From IMG/VR virus record IMGVR_UViG_3300044796_000401: DNA of 64,000 nt, one strand, 5' to 3'. This document shows positions 187 through 42,272 of the stretch, piece by piece (the first letter of the stretch is position 1; every line of letters begins with the position of its first letter). This stretch comes from a virus. Lineage: Duplodnaviria > Caudoviricetes. The position numbers and the translations under genes were made by a program. The notes below the pieces were generated by a model. That model did no database searches, was not told where the DNA came from, and saw nothing but the letters and a program-made list of their open reading frames with translations.

Positions 187-216
187 TTGACAGTTTTCCG
201 GCTACCGCGGTATTAT
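187..216 (+). promoter_or_regulatory. sigma70-type promoter of tRNA array 1
   Basis: TTGACA (187-192), 18 nt, TATTAT (211-216); ATG follows 6 nt later. Confidence 0.8.
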
Positions 217-222
217 ACAGAC

Positions 223-303
223 ATGGTTCGCATACCCATATCGTCGTCATCCAGTAGCCCCTCAGGGGCGGGCGGCGGTGTGCGCGATACCTTCGAAGAT
301 TAA
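223..303 (+). CDS. Putative attenuator leader peptide 1 (26 aa, MVRIPISSSSSSPSGAGGGVRDTFED)
   Basis: Leaderless ATG; codons ATA x2 and TCG TCG TCA TCC AGT AGC ... TCA match the downstream Ile(TAT) and four Ser tRNAs. Confidence 0.75.
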   Translation: MVRIPISSSSSSPSGAGGGVRDTFED

Positions 304-326
304 GAGAGCACACAGAAGCAGTAAGC

Positions 327-360
327 GCCGCCAGACAGTTTTGGCGGCTTTTTTGTTTTT
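327..360 (+). terminator. Intrinsic terminator/attenuator upstream of tRNA array 1
   Basis: GCCGCCAGA (327-335) / TTTGGCGGC (340-348) then TTTTTTGTTTTT; the 5' arm can instead pair with GGCGGCG (271-277). Confidence 0.8.
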
Positions 361-363
361 AGC

Positions 364-4286: not shown

Positions 4287-4511
4287 ATGATCATTCGGTT
4301 CGCCAATTTCGTGCTCATCCTGTGCTACATTCTTCTTGGGCACAATCGCTTTAGGGCTGGATGGGCCGCAAGCGTCACGGGAAATTTGATTTATGTGGCC
4401 ATGATGCTGCGCATGCACCGCTTTGACCTTGCATTTTTGCCAGCAACCTTCACAATACTAGCAGGGTGGAATCTATGGGTCCTCGTCAAGCGCCAGAAAT
4501 CTACGAACTGA
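4287..4511 (+). CDS. Small membrane protein
   Basis: Three hydrophobic segments. Confidence 0.55.
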   Translation: MIIRFANFVLILCYILLGHNRFRAGWAASVTGNLIYVAMMLRMHRFDLAFLPATFTILAGWNLWVLVKRQKSTN

Positions 4512-6601
4512 TCGTCGGGAAAACGGATTACCCGTACCTCGACGGGACCGTCCATCTCTTCGTCGGCGGCTCCGCGGCGCACGGCGCGAAGCTCGAAGGC
4601 AAAAGCGACTTCGACCTGCTCGGCGTGTACGTCCCACCGATAGAGGAGGTCGTCGGCGTCCGCGGCGTGGACGAGCATTGGGTCTGGAGCACGGCGGGGG
4701 ACAAGGTGCGCAACGGCGCGAACGACATCGACATGAACATGTACTCCCTTCGCAAATGGGCAAGGATGGCAACATCCGGCAACCCGAGCGCCATCGAGTT
4801 CATGTTCGTGGACAACCTCGCTCCCAAGAGCGACATCTGGGAGCGCTTCGTCACGCCGAACATCCCCGTGTTCCTGAGTTCCCACGCCGGGCTGCACTTC
4901 CAGAAATTCTGCGAGCACATGCTCCGCACGCTCAAGGGCGAGGGGCAGGGCAAGCGTGGAAAGCGGCTGGACTTGATCGCCGAGTTCGGCTACGATTGCT
5001 ACGACGACAGTCAAACCGAGTTTCTTACCGACCGTGGTTGGAAGAAATTCGATGGTGTGTTAAATTCAGACAAGGTAGCTGCTTTCGACCCGCTCACAGG
5101 CGAGATCAAGTTTGAAACTCCGCTATCTAAAATAGACAAACATTACTCTGGGTTGTTGTATGAAGTAGAGCCCCAGCTTACACGATGCGTAGTAACTCCC
5201 AACCACAACATGGCAGTTTCTCCAGCTTCCCGCAACCCAAAAACAAACTTCAGCACTAAATTTGATCCCGGCAAGGCAGACTGGGGTCTTGTTCCTATTT
5301 CAAGTTTAATGTCCGGGGTCAAAAAGCGTGTAGCGCGTTCTATGTACCACATTCGCCGCGCAGGATCGAGACGGGATCAAAGATTTGATGTTCAATCCGA
5401 ATACCTGCTCTTGGCTGGGATGTACTTGTCCGAAGGTTCAATCGCCTTTTACAAAAGTAAAACGGGGAAAAAAGTGAAAGCCGCCCGTCTCACCCGGACT
5501 AAAGAAGGCAAAGACGAATACTATAAGTATGCCGATAGGCTGATTCGTTTATTCCAAGGGCACCGCCATGACTATCCCCGTAAGCATGTTGAGTGTGAAA
5601 CCACTTGGGTTTTTCCTCGTAAAATTGCTAGACAGATATACGCAGATTTTGGACATCATAAGGAAAAGCACCTTCCCGATTGGTGTTTTCGGTTATCATA
5701 CGATCAGGCATGGGAGATGTGGAACGGCTTGTGCTTGGGGGATGGAACTCGCATTAAAACAAAGCGGAGCGTAGGGCAGGGCGTTGTATTTTACACATCT
5801 GTCAAGAATCTGGCGGATGACATACATGCAATGATGGTTTCATCCGGGCACATATGCGTGGTAAACGGACCATATGGCCCCTATGGATACGAACCGAAAA
5901 GCGCGTTCGGTGATTGTGCGATGTACCAAGTATATCGTCCAGACGATCAAAATCCGTATCGATGTGTGAATTTTAGAAGCGGTATCTTGAAAACCGGAGA
6001 GGAACCGGACCTCGAAAAGGGATACTCTATCAAAGAATCCCTCGTAGAAAACCGTCGAATCGTTTGCTTTGAAATGCCATCTGGCACGCTTATAACTCGC
6101 AGTAATGGACGACCCGCATTCCAAGGCAATAGCAAGGCAGCTATGCACCTGATCCGCGTGCTCAACGAGGGCATCGAGCTCATGGAGACGGGCAGGATCA
6201 CGCTGCCCCGCCCCGAGAAGGAGCACCTGATCGACATACGGAAGGGCAAAGCCGGAACCCTGAAGGACATCGAGGACATCGCGCAAGCGCTTTTCACCCG
6301 GCTCGAATCCGCACGGCTGGCCTCCGCCCTGCCACCGGCGGTCGATCTCGGCAAGGTCAGCGGCATCATTACCTCCGCGCAGGAGACGGTCTGGAACCAA
6401 AGCAACGAGGTCTTGCAGATCATAAGCAAGGCGTTCTCCGTATCAGCGTGGTGGATCGCCTCGCACAACAAAGCCAACCCGACGCCCTTGACAGGGAAAT
6501 GGGATGAGTGGCAAGATCAGAAGTGGGTCGAGAGGGAGATGGTCAAGGTGGCGATGGACCTCCACGAGAAGGAGAAGGCCGATGCCAAAAAAGGCGTCTA
6601 A
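4466..6601 (+). CDS. Pol-beta superfamily nucleotidyltransferase (Nuc-transf type) interrupted by an intein
   Basis: GGSAAHG..KSDFDLLGVY motif; exteins rejoin as FGYD/SKAAMHLIR, like the conserved YGYDxKxAMH motif. Confidence 0.85.
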   Translation: MESMGPRQAPEIYELIVGKTDYPYLDGTVHLFVGGSAAHGAKLEGKSDFDLLGVYVPPIEEVVGVRGVDEHWVWSTAGDKVRNGANDIDMNMYSLRKWARMATSGNPSAIEFMFVDNLAPKSDIWERFVTPNIPVFLSSHAGLHFQKFCEHMLRTLKGEGQGKRGKRLDLIAEFGYDCYDDSQTEFLTDRGWKKFDGVLNSDKVAAFDPLTGEIKFETPLSKIDKHYSGLLYEVEPQLTRCVVTPNHNMAVSPASRNPKTNFSTKFDPGKADWGLVPISSLMSGVKKRVARSMYHIRRAGSRRDQRFDVQSEYLLLAGMYLSEGSIAFYKSKTGKKVKAARLTRTKEGKDEYYKYADRLIRLFQGHRHDYPRKHVECETTWVFPRKIARQIYADFGHHKEKHLPDWCFRLSYDQAWEMWNGLCLGDGTRIKTKRSVGQGVVFYTSVKNLADDIHAMMVSSGHICVVNGPYGPYGYEPKSAFGDCAMYQVYRPDDQNPYRCVNFRSGILKTGEEPDLEKGYSIKESLVENRRIVCFEMPSGTLITRSNGRPAFQGNSKAAMHLIRVLNEGIELMETGRITLPRPEKEHLIDIRKGKAGTLKDIEDIAQALFTRLESARLASALPPAVDLGKVSGIITSAQETVWNQSNEVLQIISKAFSVSAWWIASHNKANPTPLTGKWDEWQDQKWVEREMVKVAMDLHEKEKADAKKGV
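4997..6130 (+). mobile_element. Intein with LAGLIDADG endonuclease (378 aa)
   Basis: N-terminal CYDDSQTEFLTDRGWKKF, blocks LAGMYLSEGS and WNGLCLGDGT, C-terminal VCFEMPSGTLITRSNGRPAFQGN then Ser+1; AT-richer than exteins. Confidence 0.9.
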
Positions 6602-10004: not shown

Positions 10005-10669
10005 GCACATTGACATAAGTTAGCATATTTCGGCGACTTCTGCGAACGCAATGCGATTTACGTTAGCTGGGAACTTTTGGCCGATGCGAAACAGCTTGCT
10101 TCATTCGTGACCGCCGAACTCAACCGTGCGATCTTTACGTATGAGGAAAACGCGTTCATCAACGGCACCGAGCCCGACCGAGCCGATACCATCACCAATG
10201 AACGGATCGCATCGCTTCCCGCCGAAGTCCGGGAAGCCATCAGAGGAGGGAAGTAATGGCAAAAGAGACAGCGAAAAAGAACCACGGGGAGAGAAAAGAC
10301 CCCGGCATGGCGGACAAATTCCGGAACCTGCGCAGGGAGACGAACGCCCTCCGGCCGAAGCAGCGCTGGGTCGGCGAGCACGCCAACCTCGGCCAAGCCG
10401 CCGGGCACTGGGAGCGGTAGTTCGGGGGAACGGAATGATCGAACGATTTTTCAACTGGCTCAGAGCCGCGTTGACATCCGATATGCCACCGGAGCCGGGG
10501 GCCGATCCCAACCCGAATTGCATGGGGCACGGCGCGAACAACGTTCCCGGCTGCATCTGCCGCCTGCTTTACTACCGCCAGTGGTTGGGCCACGACTAGC
10601 GGAAACCCGTTGAAACCGCTGGTTTTAGCCCTGGCCTGATCTTTCTTGAAATATTTTCGACAATTCCCC

Positions 10670-10697
10670 TTGATTTTCCCGCTGTCCGGTGTATTAT
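10670..10697 (+). promoter_or_regulatory. sigma70-type promoter of tRNA array 2
   Basis: TTGATT (10670-10675), 16 nt, TATTAT (10692-10697). Confidence 0.65.
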
Positions 10698-10701
10698 GTA
10701 G

Positions 10702-10830
10702 GTGCACAGTATCGTGGTTAAGAACATGACCCTCAGGAAATCCAATTCGACGAGAGCCGCCCGAAAGCATCAGGGCGACGGCCAGCGGTGGAATACCGCG
10801 GCGGGTCTGTTCGATGGGTGGGACGAGTAA
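10702..10830 (+). CDS. Putative attenuator leader peptide 2 (42 aa from GTG 10702; 34 aa from ATG 10726)
   Basis: MTLRKSNSTRAARKHQGDGQRWNTAAGLFDGWDE; contains a codon for all ten anticodon types downstream. Confidence 0.72.
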   Translation: MHSIVVKNMTLRKSNSTRAARKHQGDGQRWNTAAGLFDGWDE

Positions 10831-10855
10831 GAAGAGTCCCAATCCAAAGAATTCC

Positions 10856-10895
10856 AAACCCGCCGACCGAGAAGGTTCGGCGGGTTTTTTGTTTT
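10856..10895 (+). terminator. Intrinsic terminator/attenuator upstream of tRNA array 2
   Basis: AAACCCGCCGACC / GGTTCGGCGGGTTT then TTTTTTGTTTT; 5' arm can instead pair with CGGCGGGT (10799-10806). Confidence 0.82.
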
Positions 10896-10969
10896 AGGGG
10901 AGTCGTCCAACGGTAGGACTCTGGTCTCCAAAACCAGGTATGGCGATTCAAATTCGTCCTCCCCTGCCA
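10896..10969 (+). tRNA. tRNA-Trp(CCA)
   Basis: AGGGGAG/CTCCCCT, CTGGT-CTCCAAA-ACCAG, CCA. Confidence 0.92.
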
Positions 10970-11010
10970 AAGTTTAAGCCGTGTCCGTGAGTTAGCCGGG
11001 CACGCAGGGT

Positions 11011-11086
11011 GTGGCCGTGGCAACTATTGGCATGTTGCACCTGTCTGTGGAACAGGGTCTTGTGGGTTCAATTCCCACCGGTCACC
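11011..11086 (+). tRNA. tRNA-His(GTG)
   Basis: GTGGCCG/CGGTCAC, CCTGT-CTGTGGA-ACAGG, C73; no encoded G-1 or CCA. Confidence 0.8.
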
Positions 11087-11131
11087 CTTTCGTGACTTCC
11101 TGAGTATTAAGTAGGGTGCTCAGGAGGGTTC

Positions 11132-11974
11132 ATGATGTTTTACACGGTGTACAAGACGGTTAATTTGCTGAACGGTGAGTACTACTTCGGGGTTCACAAG
11201 ACTGAGAATCCCAAGGATGTTTATCTCGGTTCCGGGACATACATCAAGCGAGCCGTTGCCAAGTGCGGGGAACAGAACTTCCGCAAGGAAGTGCTGTTCA
11301 CCTATCTCGATGCGAAGTCGGCGTTCGGTAAGGAGGACGAACTGATTCAAAGTTATCGCGGACGTGATTCGCTGTGTAAGAATCTGAGAAAGGGCGGTAG
11401 CGGTGGGTTTGATTGGATCAATGAGAAGGGATTAAACGGCACCAAAGTAGCTAGGGCGGCTGGGGTAGAAAAAAGACGGAGAGATACTTTTCGTAAACGA
11501 TGGGAGAATGATCCAGCGTTCAGGAAAAAGCTTTCGAAAAACGGACGAAGAGCCCTAAAATGTGTTTCCGATGAAACCAGAAAAAGGAATCTTCTTTTAG
11601 GCGCGAAAGCTTGGAAAGGACAACACCACACTAAAGAGTTTCGAGAACGAAAAAGCCAAGAACAACGCGGAATTAACAATTCCCAATTTGGCTGCCGATG
11701 GATGAGAAAGGAAGGGGTTGTACGGAAGGTTGCTCGAACTGAAGTTGAGAGGGCTTTAACTGAGGGATGGTTATTTGGAAAAGTCGCACCTAAAGTACGA
11801 CAAAAACAAACTAGAAAACCAACATTAAACGAGCAAGCCCCCAAAGGAACCCGTTGGTGTTCTAGTCACAAACAATTTTTGGATGTTCAATTGTTTCACG
11901 GGAAATATAAATATTGTAAGGCATGCCGAAGAACTCAAAGAATTATTCGGCGTCAGCGGTTAGGACATTGGTAA
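11132..11974 (+). CDS. GIY-YIG homing endonuclease
   Basis: YTVYKTVNLLNGEYYFGVHKT..YLGSG, NLRKGGSGG, NUMOD3-like WKGQHHTKE, C-terminal Zn ribbon. Confidence 0.88.
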   Translation: MMFYTVYKTVNLLNGEYYFGVHKTENPKDVYLGSGTYIKRAVAKCGEQNFRKEVLFTYLDAKSAFGKEDELIQSYRGRDSLCKNLRKGGSGGFDWINEKGLNGTKVARAAGVEKRRRDTFRKRWENDPAFRKKLSKNGRRALKCVSDETRKRNLLLGAKAWKGQHHTKEFRERKSQEQRGINNSQFGCRWMRKEGVVRKVARTEVERALTEGWLFGKVAPKVRQKQTRKPTLNEQAPKGTRWCSSHKQFLDVQLFHGKYKYCKACRRTQRIIRRQRLGHW

Positions 11975-11981
11975 AAGTTTT

Positions 11982-12058
11982 GCGCCCGTAGCTCAATGGA
12001 TCAGAGCGTTCGGCTACGAACCGAAAGGCTGCGAGTTCGAGTCCCGCCGGGCGCACCA
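11982..12058 (+). tRNA. tRNA-Arg(ACG)
   Basis: GCGCCCG/CGGGCGC, TTCGG-CTACGAA-CCGAA, CCA. Confidence 0.93.
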
Positions 12059-12079
12059 GATTTTTGAAGAATGGGTTTT

Positions 12080-12157
12080 GCGCCTGTAGCTCAGTTGGAG
12101 CAGAGCGTTCGCCTCCGAAGCGAAAGGTCGCGAGTTCGAGTCTCGCTAGGCGCACCA
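12080..12157 (+). tRNA. tRNA-Arg(CCG)
   Basis: GCGCCTG/TAGGCGC, TTCGC-CTCCGAA-GCGAA, CCA. Confidence 0.93.
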
Positions 12158-12167
12158 GATTTGAGTT

Positions 12168-12254
12168 CGGCCCTGTCGGCAACTGGACAGTCGGCTTCGC
12201 TACGAACGCCCAGCCCTTCGGGGAATGCAGGTTCGAGTCCTGTCACCCGTTCCA
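12168..12254 (+). pseudogene. tRNA-like element: class II-like 3' half, no matching 5' acceptor strand
   Basis: CCC-TTCG-GGG variable arm, GCAGG-TTCGAGT-CCTGT T arm, CACCCGT-T-CCA; no complementary 5' strand found upstream. Confidence 0.5.
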
Positions 12255-12258
12255 GTTT

Positions 12259-12334
12259 TGGGAAGTGGCGCAATTGGGAGCGCAGCGGGTTCTGAACCCG
12301 AAGGTTGTTGGTTCGAACCCAACCTTCCCAACCA
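12259..12334 (+). tRNA. tRNA-Gln(CTG)
   Basis: TGGGAAG/CTTCCCA, loop TTCTGAA, CCA. Confidence 0.88.
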
Positions 12335-12339
12335 AGTTT

Positions 12340-12414
12340 TGGGGTGTGGTCTAACGGTAAGGCACCGCACTGTTAATGCGGACGATGAAGGTTCGAGTCC
12401 TTCTGCCCCAGCCA
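12340..12414 (+). tRNA. tRNA-Asn(GTT)
   Basis: TGGGGTG/TGCCCCA, CCGCA-CTGTTAA-TGCGG, CCA. Confidence 0.9.
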
Positions 12415-12432
12415 AGTTTTGAAGGGAGACTG

Positions 12433-12579
12433 ATGGGAACAGCTATTGCGGTGATTGCGAGTTTTATCTTGGGCGCTGTCATGGACCACTTCTTGGAAGC
12501 GCGAAGCGCCAAGGCCGTAACGACGGCGATCAAGCATTTGGAAGATAGCGTTGTGGCGGAGATACGGAAGTTGCGGTAA
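12433..12579 (+). CDS. Small membrane protein inside tRNA array
   Basis: GGGAG RBS; MGTAIAVIASFILGAVMDHF... Confidence 0.55.
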   Translation: MGTAIAVIASFILGAVMDHFLEARSAKAVTTAIKHLEDSVVAEIRKLR

Positions 12580-12590
12580 AAAGTTTCAGT

Positions 12591-12665
12591 TCCCCGTTAG
12601 CTCAGTGGCAGAGCGTTCGGCTGTTAACCGAAGTGTCGGGAGTTCGAATCTCTCACGGGGAGCCA
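12591..12665 (+). tRNA. tRNA-Asn(GTT), second copy
   Basis: TCCCCGT/ACGGGGA, TTCGG-CTGTTAA-CCGAA, CCA. Confidence 0.93.
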
Positions 12666-12671
12666 AGATTT

Positions 12672-12746
12672 GGGTCTGTAATTCAGCGGCAGAAAACCTC
12701 GCCCTTAACGAGGGGGCCGAGAGTTCGAGTCTCTCCAGACCCACCA
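12672..12746 (+). tRNA. tRNA-Lys(CTT) with C33
   Basis: GGGTCTG/CAGACCC, CCTCG-CCCTTAA-CGAGG, CCA. Confidence 0.87.
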
Positions 12747-12747
12747 A

Positions 12748-13275
12748 ATGCAGACTCTTATTATGAATTCAGTATTAAGAGTCATGGAACAGGAAAAAGT
12801 ATGCTGCCGATGTAAGGCTCCTAAACCAGTTGACGCTTTTAACTGGAAAAATCGAGCTAAAGGAATTCGACAGAGTTTTTGTCGGACGTGTAAAAAGGAG
12901 TATCAAGGCACTTGGTATAAAAATCACAGAGACGAGCAACTAGCACGAATCCTAGCTAGAAAAACTCGTATTGTGAAAGAAAACCAAGATCGCATTTGGG
13001 TTTATTTGAAGGAACATCCATGCGTTGGCTGTCCTGAGAATGATCCGGTTGTTTTAGATTTTGACCATGTACGTGGGGCTAAAAGAGTGGAAATCTCTAC
13101 GATGTTAGCCCACGGATGTGCATGGAAAAGCATCTTGAAAGAGATAGCTAAATGCGAAGTTCGCTGTAGAAATTGCCATCATCGCCGACATGCGGTGGAA
13201 CTTGGCTCTTGGCGAGTAACGCAAGCTTCACAAGATTGCGCTCATAGCTCAACTGGGAGAGCAGGAGACTCTTAA
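12748..13275 (+). CDS. HNH homing endonuclease (start uncertain; ATG 12763 or 12784 also possible)
   Basis: CCRC..CRTC; HPCVGC...LDFDHVRG...CEVRCRNCH. Confidence 0.85.
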   Translation: MQTLIMNSVLRVMEQEKVCCRCKAPKPVDAFNWKNRAKGIRQSFCRTCKKEYQGTWYKNHRDEQLARILARKTRIVKENQDRIWVYLKEHPCVGCPENDPVVLDFDHVRGAKRVEISTMLAHGCAWKSILKEIAKCEVRCRNCHHRRHAVELGSWRVTQASQDCAHSSTGRAGDS

Positions 13276-13313
13276 TCTCAAGGTTGCAGGTTCGACCCCT
13301 GCTGGGCGCACCA
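13238..13313 (+). tRNA. tRNA-Lys(CTT), canonical
   Basis: GCGCTCA/TGGGCGC, loop CTCTTAA, CCA. Confidence 0.92.
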
Positions 13314-13362
13314 GATTAAACTGGAAGGACTTTTGAGTTCTTCTGGTAGAAGGGAAGTTGTT

Positions 13363-13941
13363 ATGGGAACTGACACACTAGTGCTTGACATGACGGGAAC
13401 CCCCATCGGGTTCGTCGGCTGGCAGAAAGCCGTGACCATGGTGTGGAAAGATCGTGCTATGGTCATGGATGAAGATTCGGAAAAAATTTTGAGGTCGCCT
13501 TCGTTCGAGATGGGCATGCCCACGGTCATCCGTGCGAGGAACTGGGTGCGCCGCCGTCGGAAGACCGCGGTCCCGTTCTCCCGCCGCAACGTTGCGGTCA
13601 GGGACAACAGCGAGTGCCAGTACTGCGGCAAGCTGCTTCACCTGCCGGAGTACACGCTGGATCACGTGGTCCCGAGGGTCCAGGGCGGATCGAGCAACTG
13701 GAAGAACCTCGTGCTGGCATGCATCAGGTGCAACAAGCACAAGTCCGGGAGCACCCCGGAACAGGCCGGAATGCGTTTGCGCAGGATGCCGTTTGAGCCG
13801 AAGCCGGACGACCCGAAGTACAACTTCAAGCTTCGGATCAAGAAGATGCATCCGAGTTGGCGGCCGTATGTGGACGGCGGCTGGCTGTATGCCGAGAAGG
13901 CCGCCTACGCGTATTGGAACGTGGAACTCTCGGAGAAATAG
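13363..13941 (+). CDS. HNH endonuclease (McrA/HNH_5-like)
   Basis: VLDM..P...WQKAV...PTVIR...PFSRRNVAVRDNSECQYCG...TLDHVVPRVQGG..WKNLVLAC..CN..K. Confidence 0.88.
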   Translation: MGTDTLVLDMTGTPIGFVGWQKAVTMVWKDRAMVMDEDSEKILRSPSFEMGMPTVIRARNWVRRRRKTAVPFSRRNVAVRDNSECQYCGKLLHLPEYTLDHVVPRVQGGSSNWKNLVLACIRCNKHKSGSTPEQAGMRLRRMPFEPKPDDPKYNFKLRIKKMHPSWRPYVDGGWLYAEKAAYAYWNVELSEK

Positions 13942-13944
13942 GTT

Positions 13945-14179
13945 CCACGGGAGATCGGCTCAACGGAAGGTCAGGATTGAGCCGGACCATCGTGGTCGCC
14001 GCCAGGCGATGCCGGTGGCAGGACGGGAGAGGGCGATGTGGAGGCCCTCTCCCGTACGGAATTCGGTCGGTAGCTACGGCTCCCGGCGATAGCCCGAGGC
14101 GCTTAGTACAGGCGTTCGGGCGGGGAAGCTCTCTTGTCCCCCATCCTGCGGTTGAGAGTCCGTGGCCACGGATCGCAGG
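13945..14179 (+). ncRNA. Unidentified highly structured RNA candidate inside tRNA array 2
   Basis: Perfect 12-bp stem 14023-14034/14044-14055, 7-bp stem 13957-13963/13977-13983, CCTGCG/CGCAGG 14145-14179. Confidence 0.45.
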
Positions 14180-14185
14180 AAGCAC

Positions 14186-14261
14186 GGCCCCATAGTTCAA
14201 ACGGACAGAACGCTAGTTTCCTAAACTTGAAATCCCGGTTCGAGTCCGGGTGGGGCCGCCA
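14186..14261 (+). tRNA. tRNA-Arg(CCT)
   Basis: GGCCCCA/TGGGGCC, loop TTCCTAA, CCA. Confidence 0.9.
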
Positions 14262-14280
14262 GATTTTGATTGAAGGATGT

Positions 14281-14355
14281 TGCTTTGTCGTCTAATCGGC
14301 AGGACACAGGTCTCTGGAACCTGTTATAATGGTTCGAGTCCATTCAAAGCAGCCA
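14281..14355 (+). tRNA. tRNA-Gln(CTG), second copy
   Basis: TGCTTTG/CAAAGCA, CAGGT-CTCTGGA-ACCTG, CCA. Confidence 0.9.
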
Positions 14356-14621
14356 ATTTTATGACGAAGGCGAAGTCGCTCAAACAAGTCGTTGCAACCG
14401 CCCGCAAGAACGGGAAGATGAGGATGTCGCAGGCGTATTTCGACCTGATGCTTGAGGGGATGCAGATGCCCGAAGAGCTCGGTAAAGCAGCGGTAGAGGC
14501 GGCAAAAAGGAAGAAGTGATGCAGGCTCTCGCACAACTCGGTGTCGCAACGGGATTCGTCGTGATCCTTGTCGGGTTGCTCTTTCTTCCCAACCTCAGAC
14601 GAAAACGTTGATCCCACCTCC

Positions 14622-14698
14622 GCTCCCGTCGTCCAATGGAATAAGGACGCTAGTCTTCTAAACTAGGAATATGGGTTCAAGTCCCATCGGGAGCCCCA
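14622..14698 (+). tRNA. tRNA-Arg(TCT)
   Basis: GCTCCCG/CGGGAGC, CTAGT-CTTCTAA-ACTAG, CCA. Confidence 0.92.
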
Positions 14699-14708
14699 AT
14701 CTTTCCGT

Positions 14709-14784
14709 GGGCTGCTAATTCAATTGGCTAGAAGCGCAGACCTTTAATCTGTTAATTTCGGTTCGAGTCCGGAGCGGCCCACCA
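14709..14784 (+). tRNA. tRNA-Lys(TTT) with C33
   Basis: GGGCTGC/GCGGCCC, GCAGA-CCTTTAA-TCTGT, CCA. Confidence 0.87.
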
Positions 14785-15082: not shown

Positions 15083-15447
15083 ATCGGGGCTTGTTTGCCG
15101 GGGGCTGGCCGGAGCCAGCCCCCGATTTTATCCCCCGCCGGAAGTCCGTCTTTTTTCCTCCTCCGAGTATTATCCGGTATGTTCCAGCTTCCCGAATTGC
15201 CGCCCTGCCCCTACCACGCCGCCGAGCCCCCCGAGGAGCTTGCCGCCCACAAATGCTATGATTACCAGCCCAAGCGGTTCCACGAACTGATGGACGAGAC
15301 TCGGGAAGAGACGTTTTCGCAAGTGCCCGAGATCGTGCCCAAGATCATCGAGACGCCGGAGGGGGAAGAATGAAACCGTTTCCGCCCTCCCCCACGTCTA
15401 ACAACAAGATTGGTGAATACGGGTTTACTAGATAGCGAGGAACACAT

Positions 15448-40847: not shown

Positions 40848-41423
40848 ATGAAATACATAGTTGAAGTAAAGGGGATGGAAGGCTCCAGCCTTCTGTTCGG
40901 CAAGCACATCGAGTCCCCGAAACGAGATGGAGAAAACGAAGGAGCCTATGAAGACCGCGTATGGCGGGAACGCCTACACGTCGATTCCGAGGGCTTCGTT
41001 GTTTTCCCGGTCGAGGGTTTCAAGCGCTCGCTTGAAACCGGAGCCAAGGGAAAGAAAACCGGAAACGGCAGGCAGACTCTCACCGACTCGTTCCTCAAGG
41101 CGGTCGTGAGCAACAATGCCTTTGCCCAGATTCTCACCCCTAAGGGCAAGCCGATCAAGGCGGATAGCGTGGAACACCTCTGCTTGTTCGTTCCCAGCAA
41201 GGGCGAACGGAACGGCCCCAAGCGGGTCGCCAAGAACTTCCCGTGCATCCCTGAGTGGAAGGCGGCATTTCCCTTGACCGTGCTTCTCGACGACCTCATC
41301 ACCATGGACGCCATCAAGCGGGTTGTTCCCGATGCTGGGCTGCTTGAGGGCATCGGCTCCATGCGTGCCGGGAACGGCAACAATAACGGACGATACGAAC
41401 TCGTTTCCATCCGCAAGGCGTAA
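40848..41423 (+). CDS. Stand-alone Cas7/RAMP-like protein (191 aa)
   Basis: beta1 with G.SLLFG; GFVVFPVEGFKRSL resembles the RAMP P.IPGSSLKG helix; C-terminal Gly-rich loop AGLLEGIGSMRAGNGNNNGRY. Confidence 0.7.
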   Translation: MKYIVEVKGMEGSSLLFGKHIESPKRDGENEGAYEDRVWRERLHVDSEGFVVFPVEGFKRSLETGAKGKKTGNGRQTLTDSFLKAVVSNNAFAQILTPKGKPIKADSVEHLCLFVPSKGERNGPKRVAKNFPCIPEWKAAFPLTVLLDDLITMDAIKRVVPDAGLLEGIGSMRAGNGNNNGRYELVSIRKA

Positions 41424-42237: not shown

Positions 42238-42272
42238 AAAAAGGAGCCCAGAAATGGGCTCTTTTTTGTTTT
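42238..42272 (+). terminator. Intrinsic terminator closing the pentamer array
   Basis: GAGCCCA (42244-42250) / TGGGCTC (42255-42261) then TTTTTTGTTTT. Confidence 0.85.

Follow-up and report, generated by a model that had tools for sequence, protein, structure and literature searches.

In the genome of an uncultured large ("giant") peat phage, a short open reading frame (ORF) and a terminator lie directly before a block of 13 tRNA genes, which raises the question of whether this phage adjusts its own tRNA supply to the speed at which a ribosome decodes the codons that these tRNAs read. Control of tRNA genes is commonly placed at their promoters, through growth rate and the stringent response. 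For phages, the reasons for carrying tRNAs and the timing of their expression remain debated, the competing explanations being codon usage, escape from anticodon nucleases and host shut-off. The stretch of DNA analysed here (the window; 64,000 nt, IMG/VR record IMGVR_UViG_3300044796_000401) carries two tRNA arrays, each preceded by a leader ORF. A preliminary description, made from the letters alone, had interpreted the ORF before the second array (leader 2) as part of a sensor of tRNA depletion. We place the probability that leader 2 is a multivalent leader-peptide attenuator exerting feedback on tRNA supply at about 0.7. The parts of the switch, the mutual exclusivity of its folds in silico, the codon match and the conservation were observed directly; translation of the leader, its coupling and its response to tRNA shortage are inferred.

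Two relatives were available for comparison with the window (A). The leader region of IMG/VR contig G001 (L001) is 92% identical to that of the window, and a distant relative, B (L022-L027, L033 and L116), was reached via homologues of an RlaP-family protein encoded in the window. The RlaP proteins of B and the window are 52% identical, no other protein is clearly shared in the 20-kb neighbourhood, and B carries both arrays, as the window does. A search of deposited phages for a close relative of the window found none. The leader 2 unit and its array consist of the following parts, all on the plus strand.

10670..10697, plus strand: sigma-70-type promoter (TTGATT, 16-nt spacer, TATTAT), located by motif scan and kept in L001.
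10702..10725, plus strand: in-frame upstream extension with alternative starts GTG 10702 and GTG 10714, the frame being bounded by the stop codon TAG at 10699-10701.
10722..10732, plus strand: region 1, spanning the start codon, a possible anti-antiterminator; pairs with 10803-10812 in the full-length minimum-energy fold.
10726..10830, plus strand: leader 2 ORF, 34 sense codons and TAA (ATG 10726, TAA 10828-10830).
10735..10794, plus strand: sensor cassette, codons 4-23; 12 of its 20 codons are read by array 2 tRNAs and all ten anticodon classes are present.
10799..10812, plus strand: region 2, the antiterminator 5' arm; 10799-10806 (CGGCGGGT) pairs with 10858-10865, with a further short helix at 10809-10812.
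10815..10846, plus strand: antiterminator inner hairpin; its loop holds the stop codon 10828-10830, and TGGGAC 10819-10824 pairs with 10836-10841.
10856..10895, plus strand: intrinsic terminator; stem 10856-10868 with 10874-10887, GC core 10859-10868 with 10874-10884.
10858-10865 and 10877-10885, plus strand: regions 3 and 4, within the terminator.
10896..14784, plus strand: array 2, 13 tRNA genes on which ARAGORN and Rfam agree.
15099..15134, plus strand: strong hairpin (11-bp stem, 10 GC pairs) and T-rich tail after the last tRNA.

The promoter pattern TTGAYW-N15-19-TATTAT occurs four times in the window against an expectation of 0.01, and one other match heads leader 1; transcription is expected to start near 10704. 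The Shine-Dalgarno-like element before ATG 10726 is weak (AAGAA), and this, together with the three possible in-frame starts (10702, 10714 and 10726), is evidence against an attenuator. GTG 10702 is replaced in L001 by an ATG at the same place, positioned as for a leaderless message, and a start there would add His CAC, Lys AAG and Asn AAC codons to the leader. The T-tract of the terminator (10885-10895, T6GT4) ends where tRNA-Trp begins, at 10896; there is no room for a promoter between them, and every transcript of array 2 must therefore pass through the terminator.

The tRNAs of array 2 are, in order, Trp CCA, His GTG, Arg ACG, Arg CCG, Gln CTG, two Asn GTT, two Lys CTT, Arg CCT, Gln CTG, Arg TCT and Lys TTT, and both programs return exactly the ten anticodon types named in the preliminary description. 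A scan of the array for internal promoters or terminators yielded nothing convincing, and the hairpin at 15099..15134 is likely to be the end of the operon. Three homing-endonuclease genes, one of the phrog_314 type and two HNH, are inserted in the array (11132-11974, 12748-13275 and 13333-13941); the first is absent from L001, which marks array 2 as a hot spot for mobile endonucleases. The spacers between the tRNAs also hold small ORFs of 48, 52 and 30 codons (12434-12579, 14362-14520 and 14520-14612), of which the 48-codon ORF has a GGGAGA ribosome-binding site and is hydrophobic, as is the 30-codon one; all three are apparently transcribed together with the tRNAs. L001 seemed to have lost the tRNA-Arg(TCT) of the window, but this was rejected as probably an ARAGORN miss, since Infernal finds an atypical tRNA at the corresponding position (L001 19909-19986; 36.8 bits, CUUCUAA loop).

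The complementarity claimed for 10799-10806 with 10858-10865 and for 10819-10824 with 10836-10841 was correct on rechecking, and the stop codon does lie within the loop of the inner hairpin. The full-length leader 2 RNA folds well (z = -4.0): a 5' domain (10722-10732 with 10803-10812) is followed by the inner hairpin and then by the terminator. In transcripts that are cut before the 3' arm of the terminator, the minimum-energy fold is instead the antiterminator in A, L001 and B, with region 2 paired to the 5' arm of the terminator around the inner hairpin. Local energies of antiterminator and terminator are -34.1 and -22.4 kcal/mol in A, -38.9 and -14.5 in B, and -34.5 and -19.7 in L001; for the full-length RNA, the fold with the terminator, which is the minimum-energy fold, reaches -78.1, versus -68.3 with the antiterminator forced. 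As far as predicted folds can tell, then, the antiterminator excludes the terminator that abuts tRNA-Trp, as the preliminary description had held, and the preference of the full-length RNA for the terminator and of the nascent RNA for the antiterminator is, by these calculations, the usual kinetic arrangement of an attenuator.

The antiterminator is also kept where its sequence has changed. Region 2 occupies equal positions of the ORF in A and B, where the codons read A-A-G-L and A-M-G-L, and three of its bases differ between the two; the terminator arm of B is altered to match, and pairing is kept. With only three versions of leader 2, this covariation rests on few positions and is supportive, short of statistical proof. 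The inner hairpins of L001 and B differ in sequence, and the stop codon is again in or at the edge of the loop. The pairing of region 1 with region 2 is present in the full-length minimum-energy fold of the window and not evident in B, and the role of region 1 is uncertain for that reason. Its lack of conservation, and the preference of the nascent RNA for the antiterminator even in the absence of a ribosome, count against the attenuator reading.

The second line of evidence is the codon content of the leader. On rechecking, the coordinates of the ORF and the 13 codons listed for it were exact at every position: AGG, AAA, AAT, AGA, CGA, AAG, CAT, CAG, CAG, CGG, TGG, AAT and TGG stand at positions 4, 5, 7, 10, 13, 14, 15, 16, 20, 21, 22, 23 and 32. 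Every anticodon type of array 2 has a cognate codon among them (ten of ten classes), and codon choice is as had been described, with Arg encoded by AGG, AGA, CGA and CGG, Gln by CAG twice and Lys by AAA and AAG. The preliminary description had proposed that this coverage be compared with chance; when 33 codons are drawn at random according to the codon usage of the phage, full coverage of ten classes arises with P=3.4e-4, and it arises in none of 9,370 sliding windows over plus-strand genes. Among stop-free windows in all six frames it arises in 34 of 61,492 (5 loci, leader 2 among them). The number of cognate codons alone, at least 13 of 33, is modestly enriched (P=0.044). Since the raw count is only weakly enriched, the codon match is fragile if taken alone, and the case rests on its context.

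These figures leave room for the possibility, which we judge improbable, that the ORF is fortuitous and untranslated and that the hairpins act as a partial terminator that is always on, or as the site of an antitermination factor of phage or host, and so determine when or how strongly the tRNAs are expressed. The weak Shine-Dalgarno element of the window copy, the modest count enrichment and the three other loci of the window that reach ten-class coverage by chance would all be explained in this way. The evidence against it comes from the position of the cognate codons, from the kept frame and stop, and from other leaders.

When the peptide was held fixed and synonymous codons were resampled, full coverage remained unusual (P=0.013). 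This signal is driven mainly by the four Arg residues, which fall in four anticodon classes (P about 0.01-0.02), and it argues against a purely peptide-level explanation of the match. Furthermore, the two leaders of the window are not interchangeable: of 33 codons in leader 2, 13 are read by array 2 and only 2 by array 1, and of 25 codons in leader 1, 9 are read by array 1 and 2 by array 2. Each leader is clearly specific for its own array. Leader 2 samples its ten classes mostly with one codon each, and is the most multiplexed and the least repetitive of the leaders compared. A strain variant, A>C at window position 10772, was seen in two DNA runs and changes codon 16 of the leader from CAG to CCG (Gln to Pro); all ten classes are still covered, because the second CAG remains.

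The position of the cognate codons was examined with a stall model, in which a ribosome footprint of 28 nt, reaching 15 nt behind and 12 nt ahead of the A-site codon, was masked, pairs across the footprint were forbidden, and the RNA was then refolded. With the A site at codons 1-21 of leader 2, 7-8 of the 8 antiterminator pairs remain; at codon 22, 5 of 8 remain, and from codon 23 on there are none. The corresponding limit falls at codon 17-18 in B and at codon 13-14 in leader 1. Cognate codons are concentrated inside the zone in which a modelled stall permits the antiterminator (11/21 inside versus 2/12 outside in leader 2; 13/17 versus 4/15 in B; 9/13 versus 0/12 in leader 1; P=1.5e-5 for the three leaders combined). 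In leader 2, each of the ten classes has a codon within the zone, with Trp at its edge. That the cognate codons of three leaders are confined to the stretch before region 2 speaks against a fortuitous ORF.

The homologous leaders bear on the same point. In L001 the cassette is unchanged, the C-terminus is different, and the inner hairpin, though of other sequence, still folds. B has a homologous leader of 33 codons directly before its tRNA-Trp, which the source annotation had called as a gene and which has a clear AAGGA ribosome-binding site 6 nt before its ATG. Compared with the leader of the window, its N- and C-terminal residues align and its middle is rewritten: 17 of the 20 codons from 3 to 22 encode amino acids from the set of the B array (K, Q, N, M, R, H and W). 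Three internal Met codons in the B leader accompany a tRNA with a CAT anticodon (Met or Ile2) in the B array, and the window has neither. All indels that separate the leaders of A, L001 and B (12, 9 and 3 nt) are in frame, so that the frame and the position of the stop are kept, and the ORF terminates inside the inner hairpin in all three versions. The survival of frame and stop through three in-frame indels, and the much stronger enrichment and good Shine-Dalgarno element of the B leader, speak against an ORF that is not translated.

The match in B is not complete. One CAA codon of its leader is unreadable by the B array, and the leader lacks AGA and AGG despite the presence of Arg TCT and Arg CCT tRNAs 8.6-9.8 kb downstream. 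The idea that the absence of AGA and AGG tracked the absence of these two tRNAs was dropped when they were found downstream in the extended locus. A check for a leader of their own before them found none.

The leader 1 unit spans window positions 187-363 and its ORF 223-303, and its cognate codons are six consecutive Ser codons, a seventh Ser codon two codons on, and two ATA codons (four Ser classes). The leader 1 ATG lies exactly 7 nt past the -10 box, from which a leaderless mRNA is probable. Masked folding finds in leader 1 an anti-antiterminator that it does not show for leader 2. The two leaders have in common the promoter type, GGCGG-based arms and an identical TTTTTGTTTT tail, of which the window holds only three copies. 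To judge from the sequences, leaders 1 and 2 are one switch with two codon cassettes, each fitting its own array, and are not independent inventions, a relation that is informative in its own right. The statement in the preliminary description that leader 2 is unrelated to leader 1 is thus not borne out, as only the cassettes differ and the promoter and terminator modules are paralogous. Its argument that a shared architecture speaks against chance is weaker than had been stated, since the two switches are paralogous.

Two further observations concern these modules and array 1. The third TTTTTGTTTT copy (42263-42272) closes a non-coding repeat region after a 191-aa ORF (40848-41423), which suggests that the same terminator module serves another RNA unit there. 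A 92-nt tRNA at 465-556 (1598-1690 of L003), which ARAGORN calls Ile(TAT), has a long variable arm and a UAU anticodon; its class II body resembles the surrounding Ser tRNAs, it is conserved in G001, and it could be a Ser-type tRNA that reads ATA.

The recurrence of leaders matched to tRNA arrays was surveyed in 160 loci around RlaP homologues. Two complete leader units, each with a consensus promoter and a terminator, are present in an unrelated 467-kb phage (L080).

C1: ORF of 19 codons, among them Glu, Gly, AGA/AGG and three ATA codons, before tRNAs Glu (two), CAT, Arg TCT, Gly (three) and Arg CCT.
C2: 21-codon ORF with Lys and Val codons, before tRNAs Lys TTT, Val TAC, Lys CTT and Val GAC.

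The core of the C1 unit is conserved in a further locus (L141). The matching of leader to array, for which a survey of phage arrays had been proposed, holds for leader 1, B, C1 and C2, and these four other matched leaders again speak against a fortuitous ORF. Most of the other, distant RlaP-phage arrays examined sit behind ordinary genes and have no such leader, which counts against the attenuator reading; in the distant RlaP phages L028-L032, either a tRNA array or a homologous leader is absent. A search of viral contigs with the exact terminator pattern retrieved nothing, and a search with the anticodon arm of tRNA-Trp retrieved eight contigs in which, the known relative excepted, the Trp tRNA lies within unrelated arrays. 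At about 540-690 of L088, an ORF of 32 codons that includes the run L-E-L-L-Q-L precedes Leu tRNAs CAG, GAG and CAA and may be another leader, although no clear T-tract terminator was found behind this ORF.

A promoter, an ORF and a terminator could also make up a self-contained gene, for a basic, Arg/Lys/Gln/Trp-rich peptide of RNA-binding type or for a small RNA of roughly 190 nt, with the tRNAs expressed by leak-through. Arginine-rich RNA-binding motifs, as in peptides of the lambda N type, would resemble the leader 2 peptide in composition (R, K, H, Q, N and W), and a peat metatranscriptome, in which part of the window sequence is also present, includes a contig (10563-10872) that stops inside the terminator. 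It should be noted that the metatranscriptome contigs, which extend over the leader as far as 10872 and omit the tRNAs, are of low depth and begin upstream of the promoter; they show neither ends nor levels of transcripts, and DNA carry-over is not excluded. Leader 1, with its Ser run, C1 (Glu/Gly/Arg/Ile) and C2 (Lys/Val) are not arginine-rich and match their arrays equally well. In addition, A and B share only the composition of the central part of the peptide and not its sequence (homologues beyond these loci were not sought), and an RNA-binding peptide gives no account of four Arg residues that use four anticodon classes. We consider a self-contained small gene very unlikely.

For the preferred reading, an attenuator that responds to the tRNAs of array 2, the following course of events is proposed. 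Host RNA polymerase would start at the promoter (10670-10697) and a ribosome would load on the short leader ORF. If array 2 codons were decoded fast, the ribosome would reach the stop codon, which the antiterminator holds in its apical loop, and, owing to that location, may melt or block this structure; the terminator (10856-10895) would then form, and transcription would end one base before tRNA-Trp. A pause at any cognate codon from position 4 to about 22 (Arg of four classes, Lys of two, Asn, His, Gln or Trp) would leave region 2 and the inner hairpin free to capture the emerging 5' arm of the terminator, and the polymerase would read into the 13 tRNA genes. The new tRNAs would relieve the pause, which would constitute negative feedback on tRNA supply. 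A ribosome at the stop codon would lie within the enclosed loop and leave region 2 uncovered; the proposed OFF state thus depends on a steric or kinetic argument that folding cannot judge, and it is inferred. Apart from this OFF state and the pairing of regions 1 and 2, every prediction of the attenuator reading that can be tested at the level of sequence, namely parts, folds, codon match, conservation and recurrence, was met.

The same switch could, however, answer a different signal. It may report the general status of translation and coupling (host shut-off, ribosome shortage or amino-acid starvation), with the codon match as no more than a loose bias. Nascent RNA without a ribosome folds into the antiterminator, and since this is its preferred state, any failure of translation would give read-through; single codons per class would also be only weakly sensitive to a mild shortage, and a ribosome cannot distinguish a missing tRNA from an uncharged one. 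A general sensor does not account for the fit of each leader to its own array and not to others, nor for a codon-level coverage that exceeds what the peptide sequence entails. Moreover, tRNA synthesis is no relief for amino-acid starvation, so that specific matching would be purposeless under such a signal. We regard this alternative as unlikely, without dismissing it.

Attenuation by a leader peptide is well known from enterobacteria, and leader 2 has the layout of those systems (thrL for Thr and Ile, ilvL of ilvGMEDA for Leu, Val and Ile, and trpL, hisL, leuL and pheL): a promoter, a short codon-rich ORF, alternative hairpins, and a terminator before the regulated genes. As in thrL and ilvL, one leader would sense several amino acids. 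In contrast, the enterobacterial attenuators control biosynthetic enzymes, and leader 2 would control tRNAs and is carried by a phage; they use tandem runs of one to three amino acids, where leader 2 uses ten anticodon classes mostly once each; and their stop codon is next to region 2, where that of leader 2 is in the apical loop of the antiterminator. Unlike in the enterobacterial systems, the 1:2 element is not conserved. As the regulated genes are 13 tRNAs, homing endonucleases and small ORFs, and not biosynthesis or synthetase genes, leader 2 is a variant and not a classical member. None of the Rfam leader families matches at its gathering score (the best are Trp_leader, 15.8 bits with a cut-off of 41, and Leu_leader, 14.0 with a cut-off of 50), and these subthreshold matches align to the terminator only.

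Two other systems come closer in what they regulate or sense. The pheM leader of E. coli pheST attenuates an aminoacyl-tRNA synthetase by means of a leader peptide that senses one amino acid. As proposed for leader 2, a component of the translation apparatus is under attenuation and slow decoding raises decoding capacity; the product under pheM is a synthetase, however, whereas the product under leader 2 would be the very tRNA whose decoding is sensed, so that feedback would be direct. The switch proposed for leader 2 is resembled by T-box riboswitches in that the choice between terminator and antiterminator answers the state of a specific tRNA through a codon-like specifier, but the T-box RNA binds uncharged tRNA directly, without a ribosome or an ORF, where leader 2 is ORF-based. 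T-boxes control synthetase, biosynthesis and transporter genes with one tRNA per element, and Rfam returned no T-box match in the leader 2 region. A search of the literature found no publication on leader-peptide attenuation of tRNA genes. The class of mechanism is classical; the target, tRNA genes, and the multiplexing are new.

If the attenuator reading is true, leader 2 would provide the first example of feedback on tRNA supply that is both sensed by the ribosome and specific to tRNA species. It would also be a small sensor of natural origin that monitors decoding capacity for as many as ten tRNA species, and the debate on phage tRNAs would become directly testable. The homologous but rewritten cassettes of leader 1, leader 2 and relative B show a route by which such a sensor can be retargeted. 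A broader interpretation can be offered only tentatively, and we would not yet rely on it: large phages may run codon-resolved feedback on their own tRNA supply by means of a duplicated switch module (a common promoter, an antiterminator with the stop codon in its loop, and a terminator with a fixed T-tail) whose exchangeable cassette is rewritten for each tRNA block and, in leader 2, acts as an OR-gate over ten tRNA species. The replacement set would then be switched on when any one species is depleted, including by host anticodon nucleases, whose targets would be Lys, Arg, His and Asn tRNAs.

The surroundings of the arrays are compatible with such a role. Besides homing endonucleases and a helicase, the window encodes a 711-aa RlaP-family (PF10127) RNA-repair nucleotidyltransferase at 4466-6601, between both tRNA arrays, and in relative B a Tpt1-like RNA 2'-phosphotransferase (PF01885) and a class Ib aminoacyl-tRNA-synthetase-like protein (PF00579) are encoded directly after the tRNA region (L033 18015-19341). 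Given the RlaP neighbour in A and, in B, the genes of Tpt1-like and class-I synthetase-like type, the arrays stand in a context of tRNA maintenance, which fits a response to tRNA damage without proving one. Searches with the ORF immediately 5' of the leader 2 unit (10126-10599) found no homologues. Identical copies of the RlaP protein occur on contigs of up to 270 kb, and RlaP homologues also have LAGLIDADG hits, for which the alignment indicates an intein-like insert with a Cys...TEFLT block and a GN-C end.
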